From positions 457,236 through 521,235 of the forward strand of contig CAVSOI010000012.1 in assembly GCA_963729615.1 (NCBI GenBank): 64,000 bases of DNA. The letters run 5' to 3'. The position numbers were made by a program, and so were the translations under genes. Source of the stretch: an uncultured Cytophagales bacterium (GTDB lineage Bacteria; Bacteroidota; Bacteroidia; Cytophagales; Flammeovirgaceae). Of the stretch, positions 25,497-57,575 are shown piece by piece (within the stretch, counting starts at the first letter, position 1; every line of letters starts with the position of its first letter). The notes under the pieces were generated by a model. That model was given only the letters and a program-made list of their open reading frames with translations. It was not told where the DNA came from and made no database searches.

Positions 25497-25498
25497 AG

Positions 25499-36164: not shown

Positions 36165-37004
36165 TTAGTTACTTGTGCCGAAGATAATTTTCACTGTACT
36201 AGTTTCATCACTTACGAATTCAATCGTTCCGTCAGGGTTTTCTATTACTTTCATATCACCACTACCAGATGTCGTAATTTCCACATCGTCATAAATGTCT
36301 TGGAGTTTCTCCATAGAGTTAAGCAACTCAGGAACTTGTGGCTTGCTACTATAAATATCTAGCAAAAGCATCAATCTCTCTAATACAAACTTCTGCTCAG
36401 CAATTTTCTCTTTCAAAACAGACTGAATATCTGATCTTCCAGAGCTTTTGCTGTAAATCAAGGTAGTCAAATGAGTGGACTCAATCCAACCGCCAGTCAA
36501 GAGCAATGCACTAATTACATCTCTATTCTGCTCGTGCAAATGATTGTTTATTTTTTCAAAATTACGAGTTGTTGATTGAATCAATTCATCTAAGTTATCT
36601 TTTTCAGCTAATGCTTTCAAGGTAGAATACTCAAAAAACTGGTCGATTGCCAAGCCTTCAGCCAAATCTTGCACAGCATCTAAGTAATGGATTGCATCTT
36701 GCGTTTTCCCGTAGATATTTGAAAAACCTAGATTTGTTGAGTAAATCCCCAAGTTCAAGGCTTTCTTATAATTTGTAGTGTATTTGTCGGAGTTATTGTA
36801 ATCATTCAGCATACTCCTGTCATAAGTAACTCCAGACTCTTTCATGAGCATGGTCATTTCAATTGGACTTGGAATAGATTGGATAATCTGCTCAATCAAA
36901 TCGGCATCGGCCGGATTGATTTTGTTAGCTCCTTTTGCCAACACCATGCCACTTGTACCTAGCAAGGTGAAAATGGCAATTACTCCTACATATAGCTTTC
37001 TCAT
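36165..37004 (-). CDS. Lipoprotein/secreted protein, paralogue 1 of a tandem pair (hypothetical)
   Basis: Signal MRKLYVGVIAIFTLLGTSGMVLA. Shares blocks (IIQSIPSPIEMT, NLGIYSTNLG, LLLTGGWIE, TTLIYSK) with the downstream gene. Confidence 0.55.
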   Translation of the reverse strand: MRKLYVGVIAIFTLLGTSGMVLAKGANKINPADADLIEQIIQSIPSPIEMTMLMKESGVTYDRSMLNDYNNSDKYTTNYKKALNLGIYSTNLGFSNIYGKTQDAIHYLDAVQDLAEGLAIDQFFEYSTLKALAEKDNLDELIQSTTRNFEKINNHLHEQNRDVISALLLTGGWIESTHLTTLIYSKSSGRSDIQSVLKEKIAEQKFVLERLMLLLDIYSSKPQVPELLNSMEKLQDIYDDVEITTSGSGDMKVIENPDGTIEFVSDETSTVKIIFGTSN

Positions 37005-37293
37005 AGTGATTTGTCGAAAAGTTTAATACTGATTTTCTTTCAATGTTTTTAACGCAGTTGCTTGCTCAATGTTATTCCAAAACTGTGCAATTTATACAAT
37101 AGTGGAGTTTTTTAACGTAGCATTAACTTAACAGGTACAGTGTTAAAATATCATTTGTTTTCATCTACAATTTCAACGAAGTTTTAACCAAAAACTTATA
37201 TCAATCTATTCCTTATCAAAAATAAACTCAAATAACACTGAAAAATATAGATGAAGCAGAGGAGACAAAAACCCCTCTGCTTCTTTTAAAAAA

Positions 37294-38202
37294 TTATTCT
37301 ATAATTCTATCTCTAATGGAATTGACCAGACTGGTAATCTGTTTGATATGCTCTTCGGTAATATTAATTTCACTAATGCTCTTATCTATGAAAATAAGTT
37401 CTCCGTTTTTCTCCACCATTTCTGGCTCCACAAATTTAGTTTCGATTTCTATATTGTCATATACTTTTTGCAATTCACGCAAATCATCAATCAATTCGGG
37501 GAATCCAGGCTTATTTCTGTAAACGTCCAGTACAAGTAAAATCTGACCCAAAACAATTTTCTGCTCACCAATCTTATCTTTCAGTGCACTATTAGGCTTC
37601 TTATTATAAACCAAAGTAGTTAGATAAGTAGCCTCAACCCAGCCTCCTGTCAATAAAAGAATACTTAGACTCTCTCTCTTCTGCTCTCTCAGGTGGAAGT
37701 TGATTTTCTCGAAATTCTGAGTGGTTGTCAGAATAAGTGAATCTAAATTATCAGCACTTTCGGCTAATCTTTTTAGTGTTTTATAATCGAAAAATTGCTC
37801 AATTGCCAACCCTTTGCCAAAGTTTGTACGGAGTTCAAATAACTAATAGCATCCTGATTCTTTGCCATAAATATTCGCATAACCCAAATCTGTACCATAA
37901 ATCCCTAAATTTACGGCTTTTTTGAAATTTGTAGCATATTGCGAGACATTATCATCGTCATTCATTTCATCTCTATTATAGATCGCCCCGCCTTCCTGAA
38001 TAAGCGTGGTAATTTCTAAAGGAGAAGGAATTGACTGAATAATGTCATTGATGATTTCATCCGACATCACAATTGGGACTTCTGCCTCTTCCTCGCCACC
38101 ATCTTTGCCATCTCCGTCAACCTTTTCGCCCCCATTTCCAGCGCAACTAGTTAAAATGAAGATAAATACAATTACCAATATGCTTAGATAGCTTTTTCTC
38201 AT
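37294..38202 (-). CDS. Lipoprotein paralogue 2 with an acidic linker, with a local frame disturbance at about 37810-37850 (two compensating indels and/or an in-frame TAG at 37843-37845)
   Basis: Lipobox FILTSC. ORFs 37843..38202 and 37294..37809 are in the same frame, separated by TAG. The +1 reading of the 45 nt between them (QDAISYLNSVQTLAKG) matches the paralogue (QDAIHYLDAVQDLAEG) at 11 of 16 positions. Confidence 0.5.
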
Positions 38203-38501
38203 GATATTTTTTTAAAAAGAATTGAGTACCTCTGTACTGTTTTATTTCTATAAACCTTTCATTGCCAGCAAATTAGAACTAGCGACAATCATTTTTCTTA
38301 CTCTGAATCTGCTTATTACTACTATTCTTTGTTGAAAATAATAATTTCAAACAGAAAAATGACAATAGAGATATGAATAATTCCATTGCCAATGTAATTG
38401 ATACACGCAAAATAAGGAAAATTGTTTGACTATAAAAGAATGGGACGAAGATGAATGCCACATTATTCTTTGTTTACAATTTAAGGTTAATTTATTTGTG
38501 G

Positions 38502-38533
38502 TCGAAATCAAAAAAACTCGCCATTTCAGGCGA
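38502..38533. terminator. Bidirectional intrinsic terminator below the ABC gene
   Basis: aaaaaaactcgcc-atttca-ggcgagttttttt: perfect stem flanked by an A-run on one side and a T-run on the other. Confidence 0.7.
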
Positions 38534-38573
38534 GTTTTTTTGATTTCTCATTATCAAGTGTAATGTATGCTGT

Positions 38574-41261
38574 CTAATCTTTATCTCCACCCAAATTGCT
38601 GAGGAAGTTTATTATGTTTTTGAGCCATTCAAAATATAAGGCAACATATAAAAGCAGCGTCATTGTCCAAATTAGCAATACATTGAACCAGAAAGTATCA
38701 ATGAGTTTGCCTAAAAAGAACTTTTTTGGTGCATAAAAATGCGCTCTATAATTCAGTAAATTACCTTTCGATAATGGAATTTGCAAGCCTGGGTCTGTTA
38801 CTTGAATCAACATTCCTCTGTCCATAACAAACTTGTCGACCGAAGATTCATTTTGCATCACATCGTTTAGTTGCTCACTAAAATACTGATCTTTATATTC
38901 TGATAGGCTTACATCTTTAGGCAATTCTTTTTGGATAACCATTCGGATTGAATCCATAGAGTCGGAAGCCTTAATTAATTGAGCGGTATAAGCCTTTTTT
39001 ACCTCTGCCAAAGCCTCCCTCAATTCATCAGCTTTCTTTTCATTGAAGGTTTTAGGATTGAAATACTCCTCCCATTTCCCTTCAAACCTCGGAGCTAAAA
39101 ATTTATCGGTCGCAAAAGCATGTTGCAAAACTGGCATAGACAACTGGAGATTCGCAATGGCGGTTGAATCATTCCCTTCATTGGAATCCTTCAAATCATT
39201 GGATGCCAATTGTGACATGCCAATTAAGCTTTCCAATTCTGGTCGCCAATAAATATTCTTATATTTTGCCTCACTTTCCAATACTGCAAATGGGAAAATA
39301 TCTTCGTAGAATGGATTTCCCTTGTATTGTTCCACTGTCAGAGCTTCATAGGACCATCGGGATGCCATAATATCGGCAATCAAAGGAACAGTACCTCGCT
39401 CACTTACAGACTGGTTCAATTTATCGAACTTGAAGATTGCGCCACTCAAAATCATTTGCGGAATCAGCAACAGCGGAATGATAATGTAAACGGTTACTGC
39501 TGAATTGAAAGCAGAGGAGATATTCAATCCGAGTACATTGGCATGGCAGGAGACCGTAAACAAAACGCCCCAATACATCATGTTTACGCCTTTGATTTCC
39601 AAAATAAAATTTCCAATCAGCACCAAAGTTAAGGTCTGGATTGCAGATAAACTGAAGAGTATCAACAACTTGGAAACTAAATATCCACTTCTACTCAAAT
39701 TGAGGAAAGATTCCCTCTTTTTAATTTTCTTATCTCGAATAATTTCCTCCGCACTTACCGTCAAACCCATGAAAAGTGCCACGATAATACATATTAGTAT
39801 GTAGGCAGGAATGTTCTCATTGTGTCGGTAAATGTATTCGCCATCATTGATGCTTTTGTAGCGAATCACTAATGAAAGCAACAAAGCCAAAAACGGAGCC
39901 TCCAAAAGGTTGATAAGCATATATTGCTTATTGCTTACTTTGGAAAGGAAATCTCGGATAGTAAATATCTTGGTTTGGCTGAACCAAGAAGGGATTTTCA
40001 AAGTCTGAGGTGGCGCTTCGCTCACGTGGGGAATGCGATCTACCTGAATATTTTTCTTATAAAGTTCATGCCATTCTGTAGGCTGAACTTTTCTTTTGCT
40101 CGTGAATTCTCCGTATTCATTTACAACCCTTGCTTCAATGATATTGAAAACCTGCTCAGGATTCACATTACCACAAGTTTGGCACTGACCTTGGTCGCTA
40201 CCAACCTGACTTGCTGCCGTTTTGAAATAAATAACTGCTTCGACTGGATTTCCGTAAAAAATAGGATAACCGCCTGTATCCATCATAAACATCTTGTCGA
40301 ACATCTTATAGATGTCGGAAGAAGGCTGGTGGATAACCACAAATATAAGTTTGCCTTTGAGGGAAAGTTCCTTCAGAAGGTCAATTACGTTTTCAGAATC
40401 TCTTGAGGAAAGTCCGGAAGTTGGTTCATCTACGAACATTACAGCAGGTTCTCGAATAAGTTCGAGCGCAATATTCAGACGCTTTCTTTGCCCTCCACTA
40501 ATTTTTTTGTTGAGGACATTTCCAACCACCAAATGTTTGATATGCAAAAGGCCTAGGCTTTCCAGAACAGAATCTACCTTTTTGCCAATTTCTTCGTTCG
40601 TTAAATCTTTGAAGCAAAGTTTAGCATTGTAGTAAAGATTTTGGTAAACGGTTAGCTCCTCAATCAGCAAATCATCTTGCGCCACATAACCGATTACACC
40701 TTCAATCTCTTCTTTCTCCTTCGCATCGTGAATATTGTAGCCATTGATTTTGACTGTTCCAGAGTATGGAGTTTCCAATCCGGCCAACACATTCAGCAAA
40801 GTTGTTTTTCCTGCTCCACTTGCGCCCATAATTCCGAGCAAGTTTCCTGGCCCTTCGGAAATGGTTACTTCTCTTAATCCAACATGCCCGTTCGGGAAAC
40901 GGAACTCAATATCCTCTGCAAGGAAAGATAGGTTTTTGACTTGCGTGTCGCTATTGAAAGTACTTACTAAATCGGAGTAGTAAAGAGGTTCTCCTTTTGG
41001 AGTTTTAATTACACTACCTGGCGCAAATTGTTGAATTCCGCCCTTCACTTGCCTTCCATTCAGGAAGATTTCGTCTTTTCCGTTGTATTTGCAGAAATAC
41101 TGACCCACACTATTCACTCGAACGAAAATAATTTCCCCATCCAAATCTCCTGAGTTGATGAATTGGGTTTTGCTACCTTCTGCAGGCATAGATTCATCAA
41201 AAACAAGATAATCTTCATGGTCGAGATTATCTGAAGGTAGGCTCAACAATGAACTTTTCAA
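38574..41261 (-). CDS. ABC-2/ABCG-type exporter: N-terminal FHA-like domain, ABC ATPase, C-terminal 6-TM permease
   Basis: Walker A GASGAGKTTLLN, signature LSGGQRKRLNIA, Walker B VMFVDEPTSGLS, C-terminal hydrophobic half. The first ~100 aa carry the FHA-like segment NGRQVKGGIQQFAPGSVIKT. Confidence 0.75.
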   Translation of the reverse strand: MKSSLLSLPSDNLDHEDYLVFDESMPAEGSKTQFINSGDLDGEIIFVRVNSVGQYFCKYNGKDEIFLNGRQVKGGIQQFAPGSVIKTPKGEPLYYSDLVSTFNSDTQVKNLSFLAEDIEFRFPNGHVGLREVTISEGPGNLLGIMGASGAGKTTLLNVLAGLETPYSGTVKINGYNIHDAKEKEEIEGVIGYVAQDDLLIEELTVYQNLYYNAKLCFKDLTNEEIGKKVDSVLESLGLLHIKHLVVGNVLNKKISGGQRKRLNIALELIREPAVMFVDEPTSGLSSRDSENVIDLLKELSLKGKLIFVVIHQPSSDIYKMFDKMFMMDTGGYPIFYGNPVEAVIYFKTAASQVGSDQGQCQTCGNVNPEQVFNIIEARVVNEYGEFTSKRKVQPTEWHELYKKNIQVDRIPHVSEAPPQTLKIPSWFSQTKIFTIRDFLSKVSNKQYMLINLLEAPFLALLLSLVIRYKSINDGEYIYRHNENIPAYILICIIVALFMGLTVSAEEIIRDKKIKKRESFLNLSRSGYLVSKLLILFSLSAIQTLTLVLIGNFILEIKGVNMMYWGVLFTVSCHANVLGLNISSAFNSAVTVYIIIPLLLIPQMILSGAIFKFDKLNQSVSERGTVPLIADIMASRWSYEALTVEQYKGNPFYEDIFPFAVLESEAKYKNIYWRPELESLIGMSQLASNDLKDSNEGNDSTAIANLQLSMPVLQHAFATDKFLAPRFEGKWEEYFNPKTFNEKKADELREALAEVKKAYTAQLIKASDSMDSIRMVIQKELPKDVSLSEYKDQYFSEQLNDVMQNESSVDKFVMDRGMLIQVTDPGLQIPLSKGNLLNYRAHFYAPKKFFLGKLIDTFWFNVLLIWTMTLLLYVALYFEWLKNIINFLSNLGGDKD

Positions 41262-41652
41262 TTTCCTTATATTCTCCCTTTTCGATATTGAAAACCTCGG
41301 CTACAGTAGCTATAATCTCCATCCTTTGTTCTGTGAAAGAACGGTCAGACTCTAGCATCTCCAGCAACTTCACTAATACAATTACCTTCTGTTGCTGATT
41401 AAGAACCTTATTGATTTTCCTACACAGGGAAAGCACCTTTACGGAACTTACCATACTTACCAAGCCACTTTTCCTTTTTTTAGGGGTGCTAGCTTCATCG
41501 TAAAGTGCGGTATATTCAGCAACCGTTTTGTTGTCCAACTCTTGTTTAAAGAATCGGATTACAAAATTTCTTTCAGCATCTGTTGCCCCTCCGTCCTGCA
41601 TGGAAATAATTCCAAACAGTTTGGTCATGGCTACTAGTATATCTTCACTCAT
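41227..41652 (-). CDS. TerB-like small protein (hypothetical)
   Basis: ISMQDGGATDAERNFV resembles the TerB / DjlA N-terminal Asp-Gly-x-x-x-x-Glu motif. Overlaps the ABC start. Confidence 0.35.
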   Translation of the reverse strand: MSEDILVAMTKLFGIISMQDGGATDAERNFVIRFFKQELDNKTVAEYTALYDEASTPKKRKSGLVSMVSSVKVLSLCRKINKVLNQQQKVIVLVKLLEMLESDRSFTEQRMEIIATVAEVFNIEKGEYKEIEKFIVEPTFR

Positions 41653-42029
41653 AGGTTAGTTAGCTACTAAATTTCTTAAAGGTTCGGAAAGCATATTACT
41701 TCACTAGCTTTGAACGATAGGAGAGCGGATTTATTTTCTATTCAAAACCCTTGGGAACGGAAAACAAATAAGACGCTACTTTTTCTCTCGCTTCTTAGGA
41801 TTTACTCAAGTTGGCAATTTCTCTCCGTTTTGGAAAGGTTTGGCATGAAACACGCCAATTAAGAACTACTCTTTGATGCGCAACTATTGCATATTTTGAT
41901 TAAACCAAGACGTATCCTAATTCTTATAAACAAGAAAGGACTGTACCCAAAAAAAATGATTTGGATACAGCCTTTTGTGAATTTACTTGTTGCAAAAATT
42001 GGGAGTAACCGAAATCAATATTTTGCTTC

Positions 42030-42395
42030 TTAGTAGGTTTTGAATTCAAATTCAACATCTTCTACTAAGTCGTCAAATTCTTCGCCAGCCTCTTCCATGT
42101 CTTCATCATCTTCGTGGAAGTACCAAATTACTTTTGCGCCATCAATATCTTCTAGCTTTGTCAATACATCCAAGATTTTTTTGGAAGATGCCGTGTTGAA
42201 ATACTCCAACTTGAACATGAATTCTGTTTCATCGTTCAAATCTTCCGTATATTCATCTAGCCAATCCAAAATTGGTCTATAAAACTCCTCTGCATCTTCA
42301 GGAAGTGACCTGCCCGAGATTTCAAAAGTGTTGTTTGATTTGTCCAATACTACTTTTGGAGTATCTTCTGTTGATTCTAAGTTAAGTACGTTCAT
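42030..42395 (-). CDS. DUF1987 (SiaC-like) partner-switch protein
   Basis: 121 aa: LESTEDTPKVVLDKSNNTFEISGRSLPEDAEEFYRPILDWLDEY..., with an acidic C-terminus. Confidence 0.7.
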   Translation of the reverse strand: MNVLNLESTEDTPKVVLDKSNNTFEISGRSLPEDAEEFYRPILDWLDEYTEDLNDETEFMFKLEYFNTASSKKILDVLTKLEDIDGAKVIWYFHEDDEDMEEAGEEFDDLVEDVEFEFKTY

Positions 42396-42404
42396 CTTGT
42401 ATTG

Positions 42405-42953
42405 TTATATAGTTCTTGGAATAGTAGCTTTAAATGAGAAAAATGTAAGCGTATCATCAATCGGTTCGAAGTCGAAAATCAACTTTCTGCCAGATTTACG
42501 AGCCATATCTACAAAGCCCAATCCAGCTCCACCTTTTACGGGGTCAATTTTACCGTTTTTGATTATATCTTTATAAAGTTGTTTCAGTTCATCCAGATTC
42601 ATGCTATTGATTCGCTCCAACTTATTGCCCATTTCTTGGACTTGGTCGTTGGCAATGGCGTTTCCGGAAGTTACGTAATATTCTTTTTCATGCTTGCCAA
42701 TCATAAAGACTGCATTGTTTCTCACATTTCTTTCAGGCTCAAAATTGTCGGCATGTCTCACAATATTTTGGAGGCATTCCATCATGACATTGAAAACCTT
42801 ACGTTTTACTTTTCCTTCTTCGTTATAAGAATCCATGTTTCGCTCTGCCATAGCCAAAACTGATTTGGTTACGTCTTGGGTAAATTCCCCTTCGTAAATC
42901 AAAATCAGCTCTTTCTTGAGCATGGTTCTGTGCAAATCATAGATAAATTTCAT
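42405..42953 (-). CDS. SiaB-like GHKL Ser/Thr kinase (anti-sigma-factor-like ATPase)
   Basis: Resembles RsbW/SiaB: 182 aa with G2-box GGAGLGFVDMARKSG. It is 10 nt upstream of the DUF1987 gene. Confidence 0.65.
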   Translation of the reverse strand: MKFIYDLHRTMLKKELILIYEGEFTQDVTKSVLAMAERNMDSYNEEGKVKRKVFNVMMECLQNIVRHADNFEPERNVRNNAVFMIGKHEKEYYVTSGNAIANDQVQEMGNKLERINSMNLDELKQLYKDIIKNGKIDPVKGGAGLGFVDMARKSGRKLIFDFEPIDDTLTFFSFKATIPRTI

Positions 42954-43390
42954 AGATAGTGAGCTTTTTGGCTTTAATCGAATTTGTGTAATGAATGCTA
43001 TTTACTAAGCAAATGAAGCAATTTTGAGACTACTCCACAACAGAAGCAATAGTTGATTACTCTAAAATTTCGTGTTAAGATATGATATTTTTGAAATAGT
43101 AGCAATTTGAATAACAATTTTATTCAAATTTATAGTATTTGTAACTTACTGAGCGATTTCCAAAACAAGAATGTTTGCGCTATTATCTCATTTTGCGCAA
43201 TACGAAAACAGTTTTGGTTGGATTTCATATTGCCCATTGATGAGAAGAAATCAGCATTATAGAAAACCCCAAGATGAATAATGAGAGTCAACCCAGACCA
43301 TTGCATGCCGCCAATTTTGGGGAATTGCTTCCCAATGAATTCCTTTCGCAATAAATCCAACCATTTTAAATATTGGCCCAAATTCTATTT

Positions 43391-43661
43391 AACCCGAATA
43401 ATGAGTTTAAAAAATTGATTATCAGTAGGTTAACTATAATTTTTTTAGTGTGGTCAAAAATTAAGATTTAATATATTGCACTATTTTTTGATTTAATTAA
43501 AAACCGTATGTCAATAGTTTGGCTAAATAAAATAACATAATTTACTGATTAACAATTACTTAAGTCATTTTTAATTCTTCATTCTTAATGGCCAGGCCAC
43601 CCTGTCTTAATTTCCCCAATCAATAATTGTACTTATCAAATACACAACTCATAATTGGGGT
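43391..43661 (+). repeat. Repeat family B, copy 4
   Basis: aacccgaataatgagtttaaaaaattg ... ctcataattggggt. Contains the GGCCAGGCCACCCTGTCTT insert. Confidence 0.85.
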
Positions 43662-43714
43662 ATTTAGGTTTCCCCAAAATTAAATGCGGATGAGGCAGTT
43701 GCTGTACTCGCAAC

Positions 43715-46700
43715 CTAAAATCCAATTCCAATCAACAGCACATCATCGGTTTGTTTCTGCTCGCCTTTCCATTTGCTGAACACATCGGAAATTAGTGCGT
43801 GGAAATCTTGCATAGATTCAAATTCTTGGGAGTTTACCAATTCCCTGAATTTGCGCAATCCGTATTTCTTGTTTTCCACTCCGCCAAATTGGTCGGTCAA
43901 TCCATCGGAGAAAAAGAAAATCTGGTCTCCCTCTTCCAAACTGATATAATGTGTGGTAAAATCTGTTCGGATTTTGTAATCCACTCCGCCAATCGGAAAT
44001 CTATTTCCTTTGATTTGCGTGAGTCCTTTCTCTTTTGAAAAGTGCAGAAGTGGGCGATGCGCTCCCGAATATTCCATCTCCATTTTCTTCAGATTGATAT
44101 GGCACAGTGCAATGTCCATTCCGTCTCTTGTTTGGATTGATTTGTCGCCATTTCCTTGTCGCAAAGTTCTTTTTACGCCTTCGTGCAATAAATCGAGAAT
44201 TTCGCCCACGCTCGATGCCTGATTTGTGCTCAGAATATCGTTCAGCAAGAAATAGCCAATCAGGGAAATAAGTGCGCCAGGAACTCCGTGTCCCGTACAA
44301 TCGACTGCGGCCACGTAAATTTCGTCTCCTTTTTTGAAATACCAAGGGAAATCGCCACTAACCACATCTCTTGGTCTGTAGAAGATGAATGAGTCTTTTA
44401 AATCTTTCTGGATTAACTCATAACTCGGCAGAATGGCACTTTGAATTCTGTTGGCATAATTGATACTTTCCGTGATTTTCCTATTCGTAGTGCGGATTTC
44501 TCGTTCAATTTGCTTGCTTTCGGTAATGTCATGCACCACAAACAGCACAGATTCCACTTCCTTATCCTCATTGAATTCGGGAATGGCGTTAAGCAACATA
44601 ATTCTGTCTCCAACCACCGAAGGGAAATCCATTTCCAAGTCTATTTTGGATTTCGTTTCGAGGATTTCCTCAAAAGTTTCTGTCCAAGTTTTGGTTATGC
44701 TCGGGTGGAGCTTGGCATCATAAAGCGTTCTCGATAAAAAATATTCCTGCTTTCTGCCCGTCCAATCCTTAATGACTGGATTGACGTAGAAGAATTTCCC
44801 TTCGCTGTTCATTCGCATAATCAAATCTGGCGAATTCTCTGAAAGGGCCTGCATCTGACTTCGCATCCGCTGTTCGGTCTCTGCCCTTCTGCGTTCGGTA
44901 ATATCTCGTGTGTTTACCAATATTCCGCCAATTGCAGGGTCAGAAAGGAGGTTGGTAGCTCTGGATTCCACCCAAATTGCCTCTCCATTTTTCTTGTAGT
45001 AAGCATATTGAGTCGTAACACCTTTATTAGGTTCTCTCAAAACTTCCTCAAACATATTTTCATAAGTGGGAACGCTGTCAGGATGCACGTGGTCAACCTG
45101 CAGCCTCAATCAATTCTTCTTGCAAGTAGCCCAAAATAGATTCTACCGATGGACTCACATATCGAACTTTGCCATTTTTCTCGTGGATTGTGATTACTTC
45201 CGAAGCATTTTCGAGCAATAATTGCAGTCTTTTTTGCGAGTTGTTGACTTCGGCAATCTGGTTTTCTAGCTGGAGGTTGGTGCGCTTCAATTGCTCTTGC
45301 GTCATTTCCATTTCCTCCGCATTTTGTCGCAGAATCTCTTGCTGATATTGCAGTTCCTCGCCAAGTTGCTGGGAATCTTGAAGCATCAGCTCTGTGCGTT
45401 CATTTACCTTGATGTTGAAAATAGTTCGGGCAATAATAATACTGATTTCCTCCACAAATTTGATTTCCGTATTTGTAAATCGCTCAAAACCAGCAAACTC
45501 CAACACGCCATAAACTTGTTCGTTGTTTGTGATGAGTGGCACAAAAAGCAAGGATTTAGGCTTTCTGTCTCCAAGCAGGCCAGAGGAAATGGTCATATAA
45601 TCATCTGGAATCTCCAAACGTAGAATAGTATCTTTTTCAATGGCGCATTGCCCCACCAAGCCTTCTGCCAACTTGAATTCCTTCTGTAAATATTTTTTCT
45701 TTTGATAAGCGTAACTGGATTTCATGACCAGCCTGCTGATTTTGTCTTCCTCGTTCTCTTCTAAAGTGTAGAAAGCACCTTGAACTGCCCCGATTTTCTC
45801 AATCACAAACTCCAATACATCGCTTCCCAAATCTTCCAAGTTATTTCTGAATCGGAGAATTTGCGAGATTTCGGCAATGCCAGATACAATCCAATTCCGT
45901 GCTTTGTCTTTCGTTTCGGCTTCCTGAATGCTATCTCGCATGGAAAGGAGCGCATTCCCGAGCGTGTCTTGCTTACTCATGGGCGTGAACTCGGCATCGT
46001 AGTTCCCGTCTCCAATCTGCTTGGAAAAGTTGGCGGTTCGTTGCAATGAAGAAACCAAATCTTTTACTGCCGAAGCCATTTCGCCAATCTCATCATTGCT
46101 GTCTCCAATCACATTTTCGGGCAAAATACCTTGGGCAACCATTTTTAATCGCTCCTTAATAATGGTGATTGGGTTGGTAATGAGTGTGAGAATAAAATAG
46201 GAGGCAAAGGCGGAAACAAACAAAATGATAATTCCAAAAATGACAAACTGCTTTTTTAGTTCATATAAGTTGGCATACACTTCCTCTAAAGGAACGTAAA
46301 CGGTCATTCCCCATTTTGGCGTGGGTAAATGTTGCCAATAGGCCAGCACTTCATTTTTTTCCTTAGAGTAATCTGTATCAAAAATATAGTCGGCTTCTTT
46401 GGCCAAAACCGCATTTTGAAGTCCTCGCATTGCCAAGCCGTTTGTGGTATGCTTGATGAGTTCTGCATCATTTGCGCCCTTTATCGGAGTGATTGCCTGA
46501 AAACCAATGGCAGAGGTTGGTTGAGCCAAAATTATTTCTCCTGTTTCCCCCAATCCTGTGCTATCCAAAACGATTGGTAAAATATTTTCTGAAATATCGT
46601 ATCTGAAAATCAAAGTCGCTTTATGCTCAGTTCCAACCACAATTGCCCGAGCAAGGTGCAGGTAAATTCTACTTTGTGACTTAAAAAGATTCCCGTAAAC

Positions 46701-47198
46701 CACGCTTTTCTGGTTGTAGGCAATGGAATCTTTCAAATTGATGAAAACACTGGAATAATTCTCATTGAGTGGCAAGCCAATGCTCAATCCGTCTTGGTCT
46801 TTGAGATTGTAAATGGATTTCTCGGAGAGGTTCGTAATCAGTACATCATCATAATTATAAGTCTCTTTCTTGGCAAGAAAAAGTGTGTCTAAGGAATTTC
46901 CAATACTATCGAAAATTGGGTAGGAAATGGTTGGGTCGTAGAATTCGAGCGCACTCACAGCTTGTAGCAAAATAGGATTTTCCGCCACCTGATTGATGTG
47001 CCGTTCCAAGTCTTGAAACATATTCTCAATCTGATTCGCCTTAAGGGAACTGACCAGCTCCAAACTCGAAGTATATCTATCTCGAATGAGTTCCTTGCTT
47101 TGGTTATAAGACAAATAGCTGATGGCGACTACCGATAGCAGAATAACTATCAGTAACCGAAGGGTTATTTTCCGACTTATTTTGACGTTCTTAAACAT
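43715..47198 (-). CDS. Multidomain sensor PP2C phosphatase (SiaA/SpoIIE-like): TM, periplasmic domain, TM, HAMP, GAF, coiled coil, PAS, PPM phosphatase; an apparent 1-bp insertion about 45095-45105 splits it into 701-aa and 464-aa ORFs
   Basis: C-terminal PPM motifs GDFPWYFKK...VAAVDCTGHGVPGALIS...FFFSDGLTDQFG. PAS ...LQVDHVHPDSVPTYENMFEEVL. The upstream ORF ends ...YLQEELIEAAG* and the next frame continues RLQVDHVHPD. Confidence 0.7.
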
Positions 47199-47266
47199 CT
47201 GTTTGCTCTATCTCTCTAAATTATTGACTCGAAATAGTAAATTCACTAAAACACGTTTAGTTCATC

Positions 47267-48187
47267 CTACATGCTTTTCCCGATCAGTTTACTAATCTTT
47301 TTCAAATGTTGGTAATCGACTTCCGATATTTTCTCCAAAAAAGCGAGTTCCATTACGCCCATTACTTCTTTATCTTTCAAAAGAGGTAGAATGGCCAAAT
47401 AATTCGGGGAAGATTCTCCCAACCCAGAAAAAACCTCGACATAGCCTTTGGGAATGGAATTGAAGAGTTTTCCTGTGCCTGTTTTTGCGACCTGACCAGC
47501 CAAGCCTTCTCCAAACTCATAACTCAAAGTCTCGCTGTCGGAAACAATAAAGGCATAACCTGCAATCAATTCTATTTTCCTGATTTCCTGATTTCTCCTG
47601 ACCTGATAAATTGCTCCAGCACCTACATTCAGCTTGCTGGCAATCTGGCTCAATAAATTTTCAAGGCTCTCTTTGGAGATAGTTATTGATTCTGGGTTTA
47701 AATTCAAATCATTCAGCAAGCCCGCTAGTTTCCCATTATCTTTTTCAGATGATTGCATTTGGTTTGAATCGTAATCTTCCTCCTGTCTTTCTATATAAAC
47801 AATTGCTTCGGCAGAAGTTCGATAACTACTCGCCAAAAGCAAAAACATCAATGACACTCCAACTATCAGGGTCAAACCGAATGCTTTGTAAGTTGGCGTT
47901 GCCAAGTCCTGGGCAATTTTGAGCTTTTCACTCTCTTTACCTTTTACTTCTCTTATCAACTCTTTCCTTATTGCCTTCAGCAGGTCTTTATCGTTCAGGT
48001 TTTTCCCTCTTTTATCTTTATTGTCCAAAACGAGCATTCGTATTTCACGAACTCTGGCATCTTTCTCTTGTCTGAGATTTTCTGCAATTGAAATCGGGAG
48101 CTGGTAGAGTTCATAGCCTGCATACCCAGCCAAGCCTATAAATAGGAAGGTAAGTAATATTCCCCAATTTCTGGTGCTTTTCTTCAT
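47267..48187 (-). CDS. Membrane-anchored GAF-domain protein
   Basis: N-terminal TM, a second TM (LIVGVSLMFLLLA), and C-terminal GAF-like ...YAFIVSDSETLSYEFGEGLAGQVAKTG...VMGVMELAFLEK. Confidence 0.55.
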   Translation of the reverse strand: MKKSTRNWGILLTFLFIGLAGYAGYELYQLPISIAENLRQEKDARVREIRMLVLDNKDKRGKNLNDKDLLKAIRKELIREVKGKESEKLKIAQDLATPTYKAFGLTLIVGVSLMFLLLASSYRTSAEAIVYIERQEEDYDSNQMQSSEKDNGKLAGLLNDLNLNPESITISKESLENLLSQIASKLNVGAGAIYQVRRNQEIRKIELIAGYAFIVSDSETLSYEFGEGLAGQVAKTGTGKLFNSIPKGYVEVFSGLGESSPNYLAILPLLKDKEVMGVMELAFLEKISEVDYQHLKKISKLIGKSM

Positions 48188-48274
48188 TCTCTATATATGA
48201 GTATTTAGTAGTGAGTATCAGGTATCAAGATTATCTCTAAATAATCGTGTTTATGAATACAAGAAAGAATAAAC

Positions 48275-48345
48275 GCTGGCGGAGGTGTCAATGGCGACTC
48301 CCAACAGACTCTGCCGAGGGTCGGACTCCAGATGTTGGTCTCATA
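48275..48345 (+). repeat. Repeat family D (GC-rich, core GTC[A/G]ATGGCGAC...CTGCCGA[A/G]GGTCGGAC), short copy
   Basis: ggtgtcaatggcgactcccaacagactctgccgagggtcggactcc. Compare 52447-52637 and 60018-60395. Confidence 0.6.
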
Positions 48346-48593
48346 ACAAATTACTGTTCACAATCTCCAACCGTATTCTTCACAAAAAATTAAATTCCTA
48401 TTTAGGTATATGACGATTTTGAAGTTTACAAAATGAATTTGCTTCCCTCCAAAGTTAGAGTATGTTTGAATCGACTTAATTTTTGGTTTCTACGGCTTTT
48501 CAAAAATACCTGCTTCGTTGTTTTCTCCCCGAATAGCTTTGTGTTTTGAAAATCTCGTAAGATTCCCAAAAAATCAATCCAAATATACTCTTA

Positions 48594-48764
48594 GGAATGA
48601 GGATTAAATAAATGCGTGTTTTGTCTCAGTTTATTTTTGAGGTCGGGTCGAGCCAGATTGGCTACGCTAGCTAGTCAAGGCAAAATTTGCAGTCATAGCA
48701 CCGCTATGCGAGATTTTTAACGAAGAATAGACAGCGTGTCCCGAACCAAAAAGAAACAAGGGGC
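48594..48764 (+). repeat. Repeat family A, copy 5
   Basis: ggaatgaggattaaataaatgcgtgttttgtctcagtttatttttgaggtcgggtcgagcc ... gacagcgtgtcccgaaccaaaaagaaacaagg. Confidence 0.8.
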
Positions 48765-48805
48765 AGTCCCACTGAGAAAACAGCATCTTATTTATTTTCC
48801 ATTCC

Positions 48806-49411
48806 TTAAGCATTTTGCATTTTGTAAGATTCCCCCAATTCGATTAGGAAATCTATAATTCCATCTGCAGTCAATACAAAATCAATTTCTGTGGCATTCA
48901 AGGCAGAATTTGGCATGGTGTTAATCATGCTGTCTTCTGGGTCTTGCACAACGGTTAATCCATTATGTTTTTTTACGTGCATCATTCCTTCCGCTCCATC
49001 TTTATTTGCGCCAGAAAGCAGAATCCCAACCAACTTGTCTCTATAAGCATAGGCAGCCGAGGAAAGTAGAATATCTATAGAAGGCCTAGAATTATTGACC
49101 AATCCTTCGGAAGATAGAAAGAATGCGTTGCCCAGTTCTAGACCTAAATGATAATTGGCTGGAGCTAAATAAACATTCCCCTTTTTTACTGGCTGCTTGT
49201 CGAATGGCTCGGAAATCGGCTTCGTACTTTTAATCGAGAGAGCTTCCACAAAGCCATGTTTTACGTGTTTCAAGCGATGGAGACACAGGAAAATTGGCAA
49301 GGGGAAATCTTCGGGAAGTTTGGCCAGCAAATTGGTAATTGGCTGAAAACTTCCCGCAGAGCCTCCAATGGCTATTGCTCGATATTTTGGACTAAGGTTA
49401 TATTTACCCAT
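48806..49411 (-). CDS. cheB: CheB-type protein-glutamate methylesterase, catalytic domain only (no receiver domain)
   Basis: 201 aa: AIAIGGSAGSFQ...H...D, the methylesterase pattern. Confidence 0.7.
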   Translation of the reverse strand: MGKYNLSPKYRAIAIGGSAGSFQPITNLLAKLPEDFPLPIFLCLHRLKHVKHGFVEALSIKSTKPISEPFDKQPVKKGNVYLAPANYHLGLELGNAFFLSSEGLVNNSRPSIDILLSSAAYAYRDKLVGILLSGANKDGAEGMMHVKKHNGLTVVQDPEDSMINTMPNSALNATEIDFVLTADGIIDFLIELGESYKMQNA

Positions 49412-49660
49412 TTTTGGGCTAGTTCTTGGTTATGTAAGTAGAATGACACAAGTATCATGTATCAAGAAAGAAAATACTGATATTTAGCATTTTACATAGT
49501 TTGAAGCTAATAATTTCCCAATCAGCTTCGTATTCTTTGCAAGCTTACCAATGTCAGATAATAATGGGCAACCTTCCCATTAAATAGTATAAAATGCTTG
49601 TTGCAGAATAAGGTTGGATTGAGCGATTTCCATTCCCGTTTGGAGCGGAAACCACCATGT

Positions 49661-50497
49661 TTAATCCTTTATTTTCTTATAGATTTTCTCCTCATTGTTC
49701 ACTACAATAAACTTGTTGGCAATGTCGCACCAAATCAAAGATTCTTTGGAACCAATTGCCAAATAGCCATATTTGAAAAGGCTTTCGTGGAGTTTGTAGA
49801 GGACGGTATTCTGCAAAGTCTGATTGAAATAAATCATCACGTTTCGGCAAAGCACCAAATCGAACTTTGAGAAACCTTCGCCCAGCACCAAATCATGCTT
49901 GCGGAACCTGACTTCACGCAGGAGTTTTGGGTCAATCGTTGCCAAATTGTCTTTGACAGTAAAATAGTCCCAAATGCTAGATTTCCCCTCTGCTCTCATA
50001 TAGTTTTGAGAGTTGAGTTCCATATTCTTGGCATTTATCTGTCCACTTTTGGCTCTGCTGATAATTGCCGTATCAATATCGGTGGCGGTAATTCTTGCTT
50101 TGTCTAGCAAACCCATTTCCGAAAGTAATATACTCAGCGAATAAACCTCTTCGCCCGAAGAACAGCCAGCGTGCCATATATTGATTTTATCGTGATTCAA
50201 CATCACATTTGGCAAAATATGGTCTCTCAACGCCACCCAGAAACTTGGATCTCTGAACATTTCAGTTACGTTCACTGTAATTTCCGACACGAATTCCTCA
50301 AAGAAGGAAGGCGTTCTTTCCAGTTTTTCTATCAGCGCACTTACCGATTTGAATTTATACAGTTCAATAATACGTTTAATTCGCCTTCGGAAAGAAGACA
50401 TTGCATATTCTCTGAAATCGTAATCGAACTTCTCTTTCACAAAAGCAGTCAATCTACGCAGTTCGGCTATTTCTATTTCTTGAACATCCATGTTCAT
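49661..50497 (-). CDS. cheR: CheR-type protein-glutamate O-methyltransferase
   Basis: ...FFRDPSFW...INIWHAGCSSGEEVYSLSILL... are CheR SAM-MTase motifs. Confidence 0.75.
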   Translation of the reverse strand: MNMDVQEIEIAELRRLTAFVKEKFDYDFREYAMSSFRRRIKRIIELYKFKSVSALIEKLERTPSFFEEFVSEITVNVTEMFRDPSFWVALRDHILPNVMLNHDKINIWHAGCSSGEEVYSLSILLSEMGLLDKARITATDIDTAIISRAKSGQINAKNMELNSQNYMRAEGKSSIWDYFTVKDNLATIDPKLLREVRFRKHDLVLGEGFSKFDLVLCRNVMIYFNQTLQNTVLYKLHESLFKYGYLAIGSKESLIWCDIANKFIVVNNEEKIYKKIKD

Positions 50498-51335
50498 TTA
50501 TTATTCAGGTTGAGAGAAAGCAAAAATGGAAATTTCCACAATTCTTGCTTGAGATTTTGTGGATTATTCACACATTGCCCACAATCTACAATTATATATA
50601 TATTTTCCGAACAAATGAAACATTGTCGTTTGAAAATTGAGAATTAGGAAATAAGACTTAAAGTACTGATAGTCATATATTTACCTAAAAAATCGGGTAG
50701 TATGTAAGATGTAAGGCTACTTTTGGATATTTCGATACAAGCGAACGCTTGCGCTATGATTTTCTATTTGTTAGCCTTACCATTTTATCACTACCAAAAA
50801 GTGATTCAGTTGTCAATTTAGGGAAAACATTGTGTTATTCTAATAAACCTTCGGCTGTTTGTTTTGCAAGCTAGGAAGCTTTGACTAGCGAATGGAATAC
50901 ATAATAGTTCTTTGTTGAACCAGTAAGGAATTAACTAAGTAGTGTTCGCTAAATATTTTCCTATTATAAGGACATCAAGTGTGTAACCCTATTCTTGGTT
51001 ATCAAAGGCACAAGCGGACGCTTGCGCTATAGTTTTTTGTTGTTTTTGACGCTACTTACTTGCCACCATTCAAAATAGGAAATTATTTAAGTACACCTAC
51101 TTAATAATAGAATACTGACAAGTAATAAAAAACACAAATTGGACTCAATTCTTAGGAATATGTTTGAATCGACTTATTTTTGGATAATATTTTGAATTGT
51201 AAACATTACATCGCTTTGAGAGACTTTTTTTTTAGGATTGCCATCAGCATAATTCTGAAAGATACGTTATGTATAATCCGTATTGAGAGTATTATACTTT
51301 TCTGTTCTGCTATTTTCTAACTTTACTATCTGGCC

Positions 51336-51662
51336 TCAATCGTCTTCAATTTCAAATAAAAAGTTCTGATAAGCATTTTTTAGTTCCCTTAGCGTAAAAT
51401 CATTCTCTTGCTTTTTTGCGAGTTCAATTCCTGCCAAATAAGTTTTTTTTGCCAAATCATCTTTCTGCAAGTCGAAATAGAGTTGTGCGAGCTGATAGTA
51501 GGTTGGCAAATAATCTGAATGTTTGATAAGTAGCGTTTCAAAATACGCTTTTGCTTTCTGAACATCTGTTTTCTGATATTCTGTAGCTATCGCATAAAGT
51601 AGAAAAGCATCTTCTGGCTCTTCCAACAGGAATTTCTGTAACTGCTCTAGTCTCGTGTTCAT
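51336..51662 (-). CDS. Small TPR-repeat protein
   Basis: 108 aa with two or three TPR-like helical pairs (AFLLYAIATEY..., YYQLAQLYFDLQKDDLAKKTYLAGIEL). Confidence 0.5.
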   Translation of the reverse strand: MNTRLEQLQKFLLEEPEDAFLLYAIATEYQKTDVQKAKAYFETLLIKHSDYLPTYYQLAQLYFDLQKDDLAKKTYLAGIELAKKQENDFTLRELKNAYQNFLFEIEDD

Positions 51663-52032
51663 GGTTGGATTTAGTTATTCATAGCTTATGGCTCACGCAG
51701 AACCTGCCGATATTTGCCAAAATAGCACATTTGCGAGTCTGAAAACAGACACAGTCAAACGCATTTTATCTTAATTTTGCGTGGACTTTATCCTTATCAA
51801 AATTAAAAAATATTATATTCAAATGGCAAATTACATATCATAGCTTAGATTTGGTACTTTTGCAGAATCATTAAAGAAAAGTGATAGCAGTTGGATTTCA
51901 AATTCCCTAGTTTTTGAAAAGTTCTGGACTCTACTGTCTCCAACCAAAAAGCAAGTTTGAGAAAGAATAAGTACAAGTACAAAATAGAAAGTTGGATGGC
52001 CGATGCCATATTAAAATAGAAAGTTGAATATT

Positions 52033-52301
52033 ACCCCAATTATGCGTTATGTATTTGATAAGTACAATTATGGATTGAGGAAATTAAAACAGGGTGGCCT
52101 GGCCATTAAAAATGAAGAATTAAGAATGATTTAAGTATTTGGTAATCAGTATTTTGATTTTATGAGTTCCGTTAAATTATTGTCATATAATTTTTGATTA
52201 AATCTAAAAAAAGTACAATATAGCAAATCTTAATTTTTGACTACTCTAAAATAACACGGTTAAATATCTGAAAAACAAAGTTTTAAACTCATTATTCGGG
52301 T
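52033..52301 (-). repeat. Repeat family B, copy 5 (reverse orientation)
   Basis: accccaattatgcgttatgtatttgataagtacaattat ... aaactcattattcgggt is the reverse complement of the family B ends. Confidence 0.85.
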
Positions 52302-52446
52302 ATATTGATAATCAAGATGTCATGCTAAATATAATTACAAGCTAATTCCGTCCACTTACTTACGAGGAAGGTTTTATTTGATAGTAAGTAATAGTTGTTA
52401 AAATACTGAAAATCAATATTTTAAATGCACTTACAGAGAAATAAAC

Positions 52447-52637
52447 ATACTACTGGACATTTCCATAAATCAAGACCTCTACAGAGGTGTCGATGGCGAC
52501 AGCATCGGCTGTCCGATTCCAAAAAACCCTGCCGAAGGGCGATTTAATCCGAACCACGATGGCCGTTCAATGTCTGGCCGGGCCACGCTGGCGAGACCTG
52601 CGGATTCCGCCAGCGATTCACTCATGTCCAGTAGTAT
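52447..52637. repeat. Repeat family D element bounded by 14-bp TIRs (ATACTACTGGACAT / ATGTCCAGTAGTAT)
   Basis: The TIRs were read directly. The interior is GC-rich: gtcgatggcgacagcatcggctgtccg...gccgggccacgctggcgagacctgcgg. Confidence 0.7.
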
Positions 52638-52831
52638 GAGAAATAAATAATATCAATTAAATAGTTCTTGGTAAGTGCTTAGACTGAATTAATCAATACT
52701 TATATTTCACATAACTAATTGATTTTGAGATTTTAACTTGCCATTTTACTATCTTTCTATTTTGAACTTACTTATTCTGATTATCAACTAATAAAAAAAA
52801 GAATTGGCAAGTTTTGCCTAATTATAATTAG

Positions 52832-54058
52832 ATGAGAATACTCGTTTTATCACAAGTTTATTGGCCAGATACGGTAGCGGTGGCGCAACATTTAGCTGAC
52901 TTGTGCGGTAAGCTTGCCAAAGATGGACACGATGTAGAAGTGTGGACAAGTCAATATCACTACGAAAATGTGAACATCAAGTATCCGATTTCAGAAATGA
53001 ACGAAGGAGTGAAGATTAGACGCTTGAAGAACACGGGTTTTGGCAAAAAAAGTGTTTGGAGGCGATTGGTTGATTTCTTTACATTCAATTTCCTCATTGG
53101 TTTCAACCTGCTTTTCCTCAAATCTGGCAAGTTCGATGTAGTTCTCGGGTTAACCTCGCCCCCACTCTTGTCTTTTTTGGCGGCTTATTTCGCCAAAGTC
53201 AAAAAGTACAAGTTCTGTTACTGGACAATGGATTTGCAACCAGAACTTTCCATCCAATCAGGGCTGATTAAGCGAGAGTCTATGATTGCCAAAGTGCTCA
53301 CTTTTTTGGGAGATTACACTTTCAAAAAAGCAGACAAAATTATTGCCCTCGATAAATACATGAAAAATTATAGCGTCAGCCGAGGAGCGGAAGCCAACAA
53401 AGTTTCGGTAATTCCCGTTTGGCCAGTGATGGCGCAGGTTTATGAAGGCGAAAGAAGGGCAAATCCTTTCAGAAAAGAACAAGGTTTTGGAGATAAAATC
53501 GTAATAATGTATTCCGGAAACCACTCTTTCGTCCACCCGATTGACACAGTTTTGAAGGTCGCCAAAGATTTGGAGCAAGACAGCCGTTTCCTGTTCGTGT
53601 TCATTGGCGGAGGTGTGCGTAAAGAAGATGTAACCAAATTCAAGAAAAAATACTGTTTGGAGAATATTATCCAACTTCCTTATCAGCCAAGGGAAAATAT
53701 TCATAATTCGCTCGGCTCGTCTGATTACCAAATAGTGATTTTGGGCGATGGACAAGTGGGTTTCACGCATCCAAACAAGGTTTATGGAGCGATGTTTATT
53801 GGCAAACCCATTCTATATGTGGGGCCAACGCCAAGCCACGTTACCGATATTTTGGAGAAAACAGATGGAAACATTGCCGTTCCGCACGGTTCAGCCGACC
53901 GAGTCAGAGAGGAATTACTGAAATCAGCCGAAAATGTTGCTTCCTTGGAGTCAGTTGGTAAAAAGAATAGAGAACTGGCAAACCAAAATTTCCACCCAAA
54001 AGTTTTGCTGGAGAAAATGACGAAATCACTAGAAGGCATAATTCAGATAGTAAATTAG
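52832..54058 (+). CDS. Glycosyltransferase family 4 (WcaI-like)
   Basis: 408 aa with N-terminal MRILVLSQVYWPDTVAVAQHLADL and a C-terminal GT-B EX7E-like region. Confidence 0.7.
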   Translation: MRILVLSQVYWPDTVAVAQHLADLCGKLAKDGHDVEVWTSQYHYENVNIKYPISEMNEGVKIRRLKNTGFGKKSVWRRLVDFFTFNFLIGFNLLFLKSGKFDVVLGLTSPPLLSFLAAYFAKVKKYKFCYWTMDLQPELSIQSGLIKRESMIAKVLTFLGDYTFKKADKIIALDKYMKNYSVSRGAEANKVSVIPVWPVMAQVYEGERRANPFRKEQGFGDKIVIMYSGNHSFVHPIDTVLKVAKDLEQDSRFLFVFIGGGVRKEDVTKFKKKYCLENIIQLPYQPRENIHNSLGSSDYQIVILGDGQVGFTHPNKVYGAMFIGKPILYVGPTPSHVTDILEKTDGNIAVPHGSADRVREELLKSAENVASLESVGKKNRELANQNFHPKVLLEKMTKSLEGIIQIVN

Positions 54059-57560: not shown

Positions 57561-57575
57561 TTGATACTAACAAAT

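Follow-up and report, generated by a model that had tools for sequence, protein, structure and literature searches.

Which process does a SiaA/SiaB/SiaC-type phosphorylation switch control when no diguanylate cyclase is encoded next to it? The switch is known from the control of biofilms in Pseudomonas, and the question is raised by a gene cluster on contig CAVSOI010000012.1 (assembly GCA_963729615.1) from an uncultured Cytophagales bacterium. We analyzed a stretch of 64,000 nucleotides of this contig, referred to as the window, and within it the cluster at positions 38574-50497 on the minus strand; the conserved unit reaches further, to position 36165. The locus can best be regarded as a variant of the SiaABC system that is spread across the Cytophagales, is devoid of a diguanylate cyclase and is tightly linked to an ABCG-type exporter, i.e. 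an ATP-binding cassette (ABC) protein, carrying a TerB and an FHA-fold domain. This variant has acquired CheR and CheB, which probably act on its sensor.

Conservation of the locus

The original prediction, made from the DNA letters alone, listed eight genes on the minus strand in the order cheR, cheB, GAF membrane protein, PP2C sensor, kinase, DUF1987 protein, TerB-like protein and FHA-ABC exporter. A listing of the open reading frames and family searches showed all of the named coding regions to be present, with this strand, order and domain content. They are not eight separate genes, because the TerB-like and the FHA-ABC reading frames form a single gene (see below). The translations matched models for CheR, CheB_methylest, DUF1987 (PF09345), SpoIIE/PP2C and TerB as well as ABC_tran together with ABC2_membrane. 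The spacing between siaB and siaC in the window is 9 nucleotides, and the gene of the GAF membrane protein sits between cheB and the sensor gene in most related loci. The genes of the cluster and the segments relevant for its function are:

49661-50497, minus strand: cheR, stand-alone protein-glutamate methyltransferase, 278 residues (Pfam CheR 1e-41, CheR_N 3e-09)
48806-49411, minus strand: cheB, 201 residues, CheB_methylest alone (Pfam 1.1e-46 over residues 13-187), without a receiver domain
47267-48187, minus strand: small membrane protein with a C-terminal GAF domain, 306 residues (GAF_2 2.4e-07; one strong hydrophobic segment, residues 102-120)
43715-47198, minus strand: sensor phosphatase, ~1,160 residues, with the Pfam-based domain order transmembrane segment, dCache_1, transmembrane segment, HAMP, GAF, coiled coil, PAS, PAS, SpoIIE/PP2C
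45195-45416, minus strand: coiled coil of the sensor between GAF and PAS (residues 595-668), with the candidate methylation site EEMEMT-QEQL at 45300-45317
42405-42953, minus strand: siaB-family GHKL-type protein kinase, 182 residues (NF038262 172.4 bits, cut-off 85; Pfam DUF6272 1.3e-42)
42030-42395, minus strand: siaC-family phosphoprotein, 121 residues (PF09345 132.6 bits, cut-off 24.5, E about 1e-39 to 7.2e-39; Thr68 codon at 42192-42194)
38574-41652, minus strand: exporter gene, ~1,030 residues, comprising TerB, FHA-fold domain, ABC ATPase, ABC-2 membrane domain, a C-terminal extension of ~250 residues and a last transmembrane segment
40965-41210, minus strand: FHA-fold regulatory domain of the exporter

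We scanned each GTDB species, represented by one genome, with an alignment of the FHA-fold domain and then ran the window proteins by tblastn against the loci so obtained. The domain is encoded in 403 GTDB species representatives; the best 80 loci of these 403 species all belong to the Cytophagales (Flammeovirgaceae, Bernardetiaceae, Cyclobacteriaceae, Roseivirgaceae, Rhodocytophaga, Fulvivirga, Marivirga). Our locus sample contained 81 related loci with ±10 kb of surrounding sequence, 63 of them with full upstream coverage, 75 scorable for siaC and 69 for the gene of a secreted protein downstream of the exporter. The 63 loci show the following arrangements 5' of the ABC gene:

46 of 63 loci: cheR-cheB-(GAF)-sensor-siaB-siaC, all on one strand
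3 of 63 loci: sensor-siaB-siaC without cheRB
1 of 63 loci (L013): cheRB-siaB-siaC without the sensor
4 of 63 loci: siaB-siaC alone
5 of 63 loci: a divergent SiaC-like gene alone
4 of 63 loci: none of these genes (one locus with an unrelated PP2C gene)

Conservation of the neighbourhood in relatives had been named as a check on the original prediction, and the 46 Cytophagales loci with the complete order, ending in the ABC gene, answer it in the affirmative. Such an agreement of order and strand across several Cytophagales families is far beyond chance. The most persistent element is the linkage between siaC and the exporter gene. In 70 of the 75 scorable loci, the next gene upstream of the exporter gene is siaC or SiaC-like, and the pairing is kept where the sensor has been lost (L016, L023, L029, L041 and L013); it persists even when sensor, kinase and cheRB are all gone from a locus. 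On the other side of the exporter gene, a member of the secreted-protein family follows directly in 63 of 69 loci. Since the genes flanking the module differ between genomes, the unit is self-contained and bounded by cheR and the secreted protein.

Switch proteins and exporter

The reading of the PP2C protein, the GHKL kinase and the DUF1987 protein as a SiaA/SiaB/SiaC-type triad is borne out by the matches to SpoIIE/PP2C, NF038262 and PF09345. The siaC product is a member of its family, scoring below the orthologue-level equivalog (NF038265, 70.9 bits versus a cut-off of 150). Its Thr68 is embedded in LEYFNT68ASSK, compared to LLYLNT68SSIK in Pseudomonas aeruginosa, where this phosphopeptide has been mapped experimentally (PMC7647112); the LEYFNTAS motif is present in 67 of 74 SiaC orthologues. 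In the folded STAS-like domain of SiaC, pThr68 is located at the N-terminus of a helix (PMC7647112). SiaB retains E59-x3-N63 and GGAGLGF, two motifs that 63 orthologues have in common. The PP2C region of the sensor (72 bits for SpoIIE/PP2C; 165 bits for NF038263 SiaA, well short of the equivalog cut-off of 700) is most similar to SiaA, with the same catalytic domain and a different sensory architecture. In P. aeruginosa it is SiaC without the phosphate that binds SiaD and activates it, and once phosphorylated it no longer does so; from the SiaC-SiaD structure, its authors put forward that modulating adjacent proteins is a general role of the DUF1987 family (PMC8457831).

The absence of a GGDEF gene from the window, already stated in the original prediction, was confirmed by tblastn, which gave no match in the window or in the loci. 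A canonical GGDEF output just outside the cluster in relatives was not found either: no open reading frame with a GG[DE]EF motif exists within ±10 kb of the 81 loci. The same intervals contained no other candidate output.

The exporter gene is interrupted in the window. The TerB-like reading frame (41227-41652) and the FHA-ABC reading frame (38574-41261) represent one gene broken by an insertion of a single nucleotide near 41240. We call them one gene because every close homologue of the ABC protein is a single chain (1,016-1,100 residues) starting with the TerB domain. One of them, P0001 (96% identical, 1,025 residues), is uninterrupted through EKFIVEPTSENLDHEDY, where the window carries an extra T ('cctaccTTcag' near 41240) leading to a stop and an apparent TTG start. 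Exporter homologues combine PF05099, PF00005 and PF01061 in single proteins, and TerB, FHA-fold domain and ABC transporter are joined in one protein in about 120 homologues. TerB was assigned by PF05099 (28.5 bits, cut-off 24.4, residues 8-131), a match that is also precomputed on many full-length homologues. The ABCG/White-type model TIGR00955 scores 252 bits on the exporter.

The original prediction described the N-terminal domain of the ABC protein as FHA-like. This is correct for the fold, an eleven-stranded β-sandwich of the FHA type, and fails for sequence models. The region (~100 residues between TerB and the ATPase) gave no Pfam match even at E<=10, PF00498 included, and a profile of 25 FHA-fold homologues had 0 matches among PDB sequences. 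An hhalign comparison with GarA or with an 8-member FHA alignment (its GarA sequence verified as exact) yielded a probability of at most 3.5%, with a weak local match in the C-terminal half alone. Invariant positions among the 25 homologues are G35, S44, G54, N61, G75, S76 and P81, without any invariant Arg or His. By manual mapping on this 25-sequence alignment, the canonical phosphothreonine-binding signature (Gly-Arg, Ser-x-x-His, Asn) is not evident. When aligned by hand with secondary structure as a guide, the domain appears to vary where canonical FHA domains have the phosphate-binding Arg (D, L, Y or K), and the conserved residues G35, S44, V45, K79, T80, P81 and G83 map to loops on the canonical peptide-binding face.

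Past the ABC-2 membrane domain the protein continues with an extension of ~250 residues (window 38574-39330, residues ~760-1025), for which no Pfam match was obtained at E<=10, and an extreme C-terminal hydrophobic helix. The defence models of PADLOC gave generic ABC ATPase matches and nothing else. Nearly all of ~70 homologues have a cluster rich in Lys and Arg (for example KKRK, KKKKKK, KKRRRKRRRKR) within a variable insert of TerB (window ~41450-41500). SiaC possesses an invariant acidic stretch, HEDDEDMEEAGEEF, at residues 94-107. The two could be electrostatic partners.

Two groups of loci deviate from the usual arrangement around the exporter. The exporter-only loci L020, L021, L025 and L028 have no upstream siaC and no downstream secreted-protein gene either, which suggests a distinct subfamily of TerB/FHA-fold ABC proteins that stand alone. 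In a clade of Cyclobacteriaceae (L056, L058, L062, L067, L072, L074, L081) the exporter is found beside the divergent SiaC-like gene with no siaB or sensor nearby. This gene lies ~830 nucleotides upstream of the FHA-fold domain, shows ~40-44% identity and carries the motif RFEY[VI]NTATQRELL. Compared by eye to an ordinary Cyclobacteriaceae copy, the FHA-fold loops of L058, L072 and L081 are changed from DGEI to QGHL and from G-x-DEI to GADAN. These changes are a possible lead to an interface, and they amount to one evolutionary event.

The sensor gene is likewise interrupted, by a frameshift of one nucleotide near 45100 (~45093-45109) within the first PAS domain, which splits it into reading frames of 701 and 464 residues. 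It is intact elsewhere, with 1,163 residues in the sibling contig L001 and 1,145 residues in Rhodocytophaga rosea (L082). A third frameshift (~37810-37843) breaks the first gene downstream of the exporter (37294-38202), whose counterpart in L001 is whole at 302 residues. L001 (~88% nucleotide identity) thus has the three genes intact that are broken in the window, and it has distinct frameshifts of its own in cheR and cheB. This pattern points to indel errors in both assemblies, and we take the frameshifts in the window to be probable assembly indels and not signs of decay.

Methylation enzymes, downstream genes and spacers

Ser18, His45 and Asp138 of CheB align with the catalytic triad of Escherichia coli CheB and are invariant in 49 orthologues. 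The block IWHAGCSSGEE, which binds S-adenosylmethionine in CheR, is invariant in 48 orthologues. Since triad and binding block are invariant, both proteins are probably active enzymes. A placement of CheR in a clade of CheB-CheR-PAS-kinase fusions was considered and rejected: among 1.8 billion representative proteins the nearest relatives were ordinary stand-alone CheRs and a few CheR-CheB fusions.

The substrate of the pair was predicted to be something other than a methyl-accepting chemotaxis protein (MCP). A tblastn search with the signalling domain of Tsr, CheW and CheY left the 64-kb window and 80 of the 81 loci without a match. L004 (Rapidithrix thailandica), the sole locus with such genes, has an MCP-CheW-CheY set at 17671-19191, ~7.7 kb 3' of the module, and served as the positive control. 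Tblastn and Pfam agree with the earlier description of a CheR/CheB pair without an MCP in the window and of a CheB without a receiver domain.

The large sensor, which had been suggested as a possible non-MCP target, is the most plausible candidate. The coiled coil between GAF and PAS is among the most conserved segments in an alignment of 55 sensor orthologues (consensus LRQNAEEMEATQEELKRTN) and contains a conserved motif of the MCP type. Using the MCP methylation consensus from PMC1079850, we found EExxA[ST] at one position of the coiled coil in 36 of the 55 orthologues (44 of 55 with a relaxed pattern); shuffled sequences gave 0.057 matches per protein. No other positionally conserved EExxA[ST] match exists among all cluster proteins. 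cheRB is present in 46 of 49 loci with the sensor versus 1 of 14 without it, a difference that is confounded by operon position. On this circumstantial sequence evidence, the sensor appears to be the best candidate substrate of CheR/CheB. In L013, cheR-cheB directly precedes siaB-siaC-exporter, ~3400 to 500 nucleotides upstream of the FHA-fold domain, and a sensor gene is missing both from the space between them and from the surrounding 10 kb. This arrangement does not fit a picture in which CheR and CheB act only on an adjacent sensor.

Several features lie downstream of the exporter gene or in the spacers of the cluster. The conserved unit extends 3' beyond the region originally noted and takes in one or two members of a secreted-protein family that has no name:

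37294-38202, minus strand: helical protein, paralogue 1, secreted or lipoprotein-like, with a Cys at the end of its N-terminal signal; here split into reading frames of 119 and 171 residues
36165-37004, minus strand: secreted helical protein, paralogue 2, 279 residues; family without a Pfam or NCBIfam model
41939-41972, minus strand: terminator-like hairpin right after the siaC stop codon, in which a 13-bp stem runs into a T-rich tail; L001 and L002 share the hairpin
43391-43679, no strand assigned: repeat family A in the sensor/siaB spacer, with copies at 14754-15028, 15382-15671, 25226-25514 and 52031-52254 (inverted)
48481-48760, no strand assigned: repeat family B in the cheB/GAF spacer, with copies at 7990-8127, 22048-22319, 15041-15353 (inverted) and 60752-60815

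All 1,025 homologues of the secreted family are annotated as hypothetical. The AlphaFold model of paralogue 2 (predicted local distance difference test score 82) consists of a helical bundle and a small β domain; a structural comparison of the model revealed no informative neighbour. A conserved block, CCTTTAGAAAATTTAGTAGCTAACTAACCT, is located just before the start codon of the exporter gene, which may have its own promoter or attenuator. A sigma-70 promoter scan is not meaningful for Bacteroidota. The unusually long spacers of the cluster are filled by the two dispersed intergenic repeat families (~200-300 nucleotides, both orientations), with a further copy at 57517-57579. About 420 nucleotides of the sensor/siaB spacer have no counterpart in L001. 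The dispersed repeats look like miniature inverted-repeat transposable elements or repetitive extragenic palindromic elements. An Rfam scan of positions 35000-53000 gave no match.

Proposed mechanism and alternatives

Based on domain content, conservation and known systems we propose the following mechanism, in which we infer all links beyond domain identity and gene linkage. Input would enter through the membrane sensor, which combines a periplasmic dCache domain with cytoplasmic HAMP, GAF, coiled coil and two PAS domains and ends in the SiaA-like PP2C domain. The switch is modeled on the chemistry of P. aeruginosa SiaABC: the SiaB-family kinase would phosphorylate Thr68 of SiaC, and the PP2C domain of the sensor would remove the phosphate. 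The gain of the sensor would be controlled by the stand-alone CheR and the receiver-less CheB, methylating and demethylating glutamates of the sensor, most likely in the near-invariant coiled coil; this could provide adaptation without MCP, CheA or CheW. As output, SiaC would act on the product of the adjacent gene, an ABCG-type half-transporter with an N-terminal module of TerB and a degenerate FHA-fold domain, instead of a diguanylate cyclase. We favour this target because the siaC-exporter linkage is the most persistent one of the locus. In analogy to SiaC-SiaD, unphosphorylated SiaC would dock to the module and alter the export activity, and SiaB-dependent phosphorylation would release it. 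The unphosphorylated form is preferred because of this analogy, the degenerate FHA signature and the position of pThr68 at a helix N-terminus of a folded domain. In this scheme, the FHA-fold domain would be a surface for protein docking and no canonical reader of phosphothreonine. The secreted helical protein probably works with the exporter outside the cytoplasm, as judged from the gene linkage alone.

For this reading as a whole, in which a methylation-tunable sensor phosphatase sets the phosphorylation state of SiaC and unphosphorylated SiaC docks on the TerB/FHA-fold module, our confidence is evenly divided. The joint claim that a non-MCP sensor phosphatase adapted by CheR/CheB drives the SiaB/SiaC switch and that the SiaC phosphoprotein directly gates the exporter via TerB and the degenerate FHA domain is doubtful, although it may be correct. 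Several observations count against the proposal. Mutual information (corrected for the average product, 64-74 pairs) gave top scores that were all alike for SiaC versus SiaB, the FHA-fold domain, TerB and the nucleotide-binding domain, so the pair of SiaC and exporter was not set apart. The exporter occurs without siaC in four or five loci. With a terminator-like hairpin behind siaC, exporter and secreted protein may form a second transcription unit. The candidate methylation site is imperfect in the window itself, reading EEMEMT with Met replacing Ala; its first Glu pair is gone from several orthologues with cheRB (L010, L022, L024, L027), and the motif is kept in two orthologues without cheRB (L043, L047). 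Finally, the three frameshifts leave room for decay of the copy in the window.

Different explanations can be built on these points. The exporter and the secreted protein could be linked to the switch without being the target of SiaC, either on its input side or by mere co-regulation, with the partner of SiaC encoded elsewhere. As input, the exported product or the transporter activity might be monitored by the dCache domain, a periplasmic ligand-binding domain, comparable to the flux sensing of Bce-type systems. The hairpin between siaC and the exporter gene, conserved in close relatives, would suit this explanation, as would the exporter genes without siaC, copies that are also without the secreted protein. 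However, siaC stays beside the exporter gene in the absence of sensor, siaB and cheRB, which is expected of a partner pair and not of a sensor-transporter pair, and no alternative output candidate lies within ±10 kb in the 81 loci; we consider the explanation unlikely. Even less weight is given to the mechanism of the original prediction, in which SiaC phosphorylated by SiaB at Thr68 is bound by the FHA-like domain as a phosphothreonine ligand and phospho-SiaC gates export. The linkage of the siaC and exporter genes on which it builds is strongly conserved (70 of 75 loci). The FHA fold, the mapping of conserved residues to loops of the peptide-binding face and the binding of the small phosphoprotein Rv2623 by FHA-I of Rv1747 via pT237 (PMC5549992) make phospho-reading possible. 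It is disfavoured by the failure of the FHA sequence models (Pfam, PDB-sequence profile, hhalign), by the missing invariant Arg/His with a variable phosphate-binding position, by the location of pThr68 in a folded STAS-like domain, unlike the extended peptides bound by FHA domains (PMC7647112), and by the known system, in which phosphorylation abolishes partner binding of SiaC (PMC8457831).

Concerning CheR and CheB, the enzymes might serve ordinary MCPs encoded elsewhere and be neighbours of the sensor by historical accident. The chemotaxis genes of the Rapidithrix locus, the ordinary stand-alone CheRs as nearest relatives and the imperfect correlation between methylation motif and cheRB would agree with such a scenario. 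It is quite improbable given that 46 of the 49 loci with a sensor gene, from several families, have cheR-cheB directly upstream of it, that MCP, CheW and CheY are missing from the window and from 80 of 81 loci, and that CheB is without the receiver domain needed for coupling to CheA. A low probability is also assigned to the possibility that the module is a decaying pseudogene cluster in this genome, with real mutations as frameshifts. Three frameshifts within about 9 kb would be in line with decay, and the gene caller of the source record also called the TerB fragment of 141 residues, which is unique to this contig. On the other hand, the same genes are intact in L001 while other frameshifts appear in its cheR and cheB, a pattern typical of indel errors in long-read metagenome assemblies, and single indels aside the reading frames are fully preserved.

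The proposed docking of SiaC on the exporter can be compared to several known systems. With P. aeruginosa SiaABCD the cluster shares a membrane HAMP-PP2C sensor phosphatase, a SiaB-family kinase, the Thr68 motif of SiaC and the order sensor, kinase, SiaC, output (PMC7647112, PMC8457831). It differs in the absence of SiaD/GGDEF, with the TerB/FHA-fold ABC exporter as the adjoining gene, in a much larger sensor (dCache, GAF, two PAS) and in the additional CheR, CheB and GAF membrane protein. Phosphorylatable STAS-like proteins that swap partners to control an enzyme and not a sigma factor are also found in HsbA-HsbD and BgrV-BgrR (cited in PMC8457831); their outputs are diguanylate cyclases, whereas the output of the cluster would be a transporter. 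Rv1747 of Mycobacterium tuberculosis is an FHA-ABC exporter controlled by Thr phosphorylation through PknF, and the phosphoprotein Rv2623 binds to its FHA-I domain (PMC3138270, PMC5549992). Both exporters are ABCG-like (ABC_tran plus ABC2_membrane) with N-terminal FHA-fold regulation, a likeness that holds for the cluster at the level of the fold alone. Rv1747 is encoded beside its kinase, of the Hanks type, and has two canonical FHA domains. The exporter of the cluster has TerB and one degenerate FHA-fold domain instead, together with a GHKL-type SiaB kinase and the STAS-like SiaC as intermediary; no Pkinase domain was detected by Pfam in any cluster protein. In type VII secretion, the ATPases EssC/YukB also have FHA-like domains (PDB entries 5fwh, 1wv3, 9qks), but they belong to an ATPase class, FtsK/SpoIIIE, that is different from the exporter, and there is no partner switch. 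The FHA domains of EssC are not known to carry residues for phosphopeptide binding. Chemoreceptor adaptation resembles the cluster with respect to CheR and a CheB with intact catalytic triad as well as a candidate helix in which Glu pairs recur at heptad spacing and a site of the EExxA(S/T) type is present. Here, however, no MCP, CheA or CheW is nearby, CheB is receiver-less, and the candidate substrate is the coiled coil of a PP2C sensor and not an MCP signalling domain.

Each component comes from a known family, whereas the proposed wiring beside an ABC exporter appears to be new. The searchable literature on DUF1987/DUF6272, on TerB with FHA and ABC, and on orphan CheR/CheB in Bacteroidetes or Cytophaga yielded no description of the arrangement. 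The original claim of an undescribed output holds to this extent; it is qualified by Rv1747 as a precedent for an FHA-ABC exporter under control of Thr phosphorylation.

SiaC/DUF1987 proteins are widespread, yet the diguanylate cyclase SiaD is their sole characterised output. The conserved pairing of SiaC and exporter would show the switch to be a general-purpose regulator of neighbouring proteins and would provide a defined second case. A stand-alone CheR and a receiver-less CheB tied to a PP2C sensor in gliding, non-flagellated bacteria would give the long-suspected methylation adaptation outside of chemoreceptor arrays a specific candidate site. If the joint claim on adaptation, switch and gating is true, no earlier SiaC-type switch has had a transporter as its output, and no earlier protein phosphatase has been adapted by CheR/CheB. 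The module occurs in hundreds of Cytophagales species and therefore probably controls an important envelope or secretion process.

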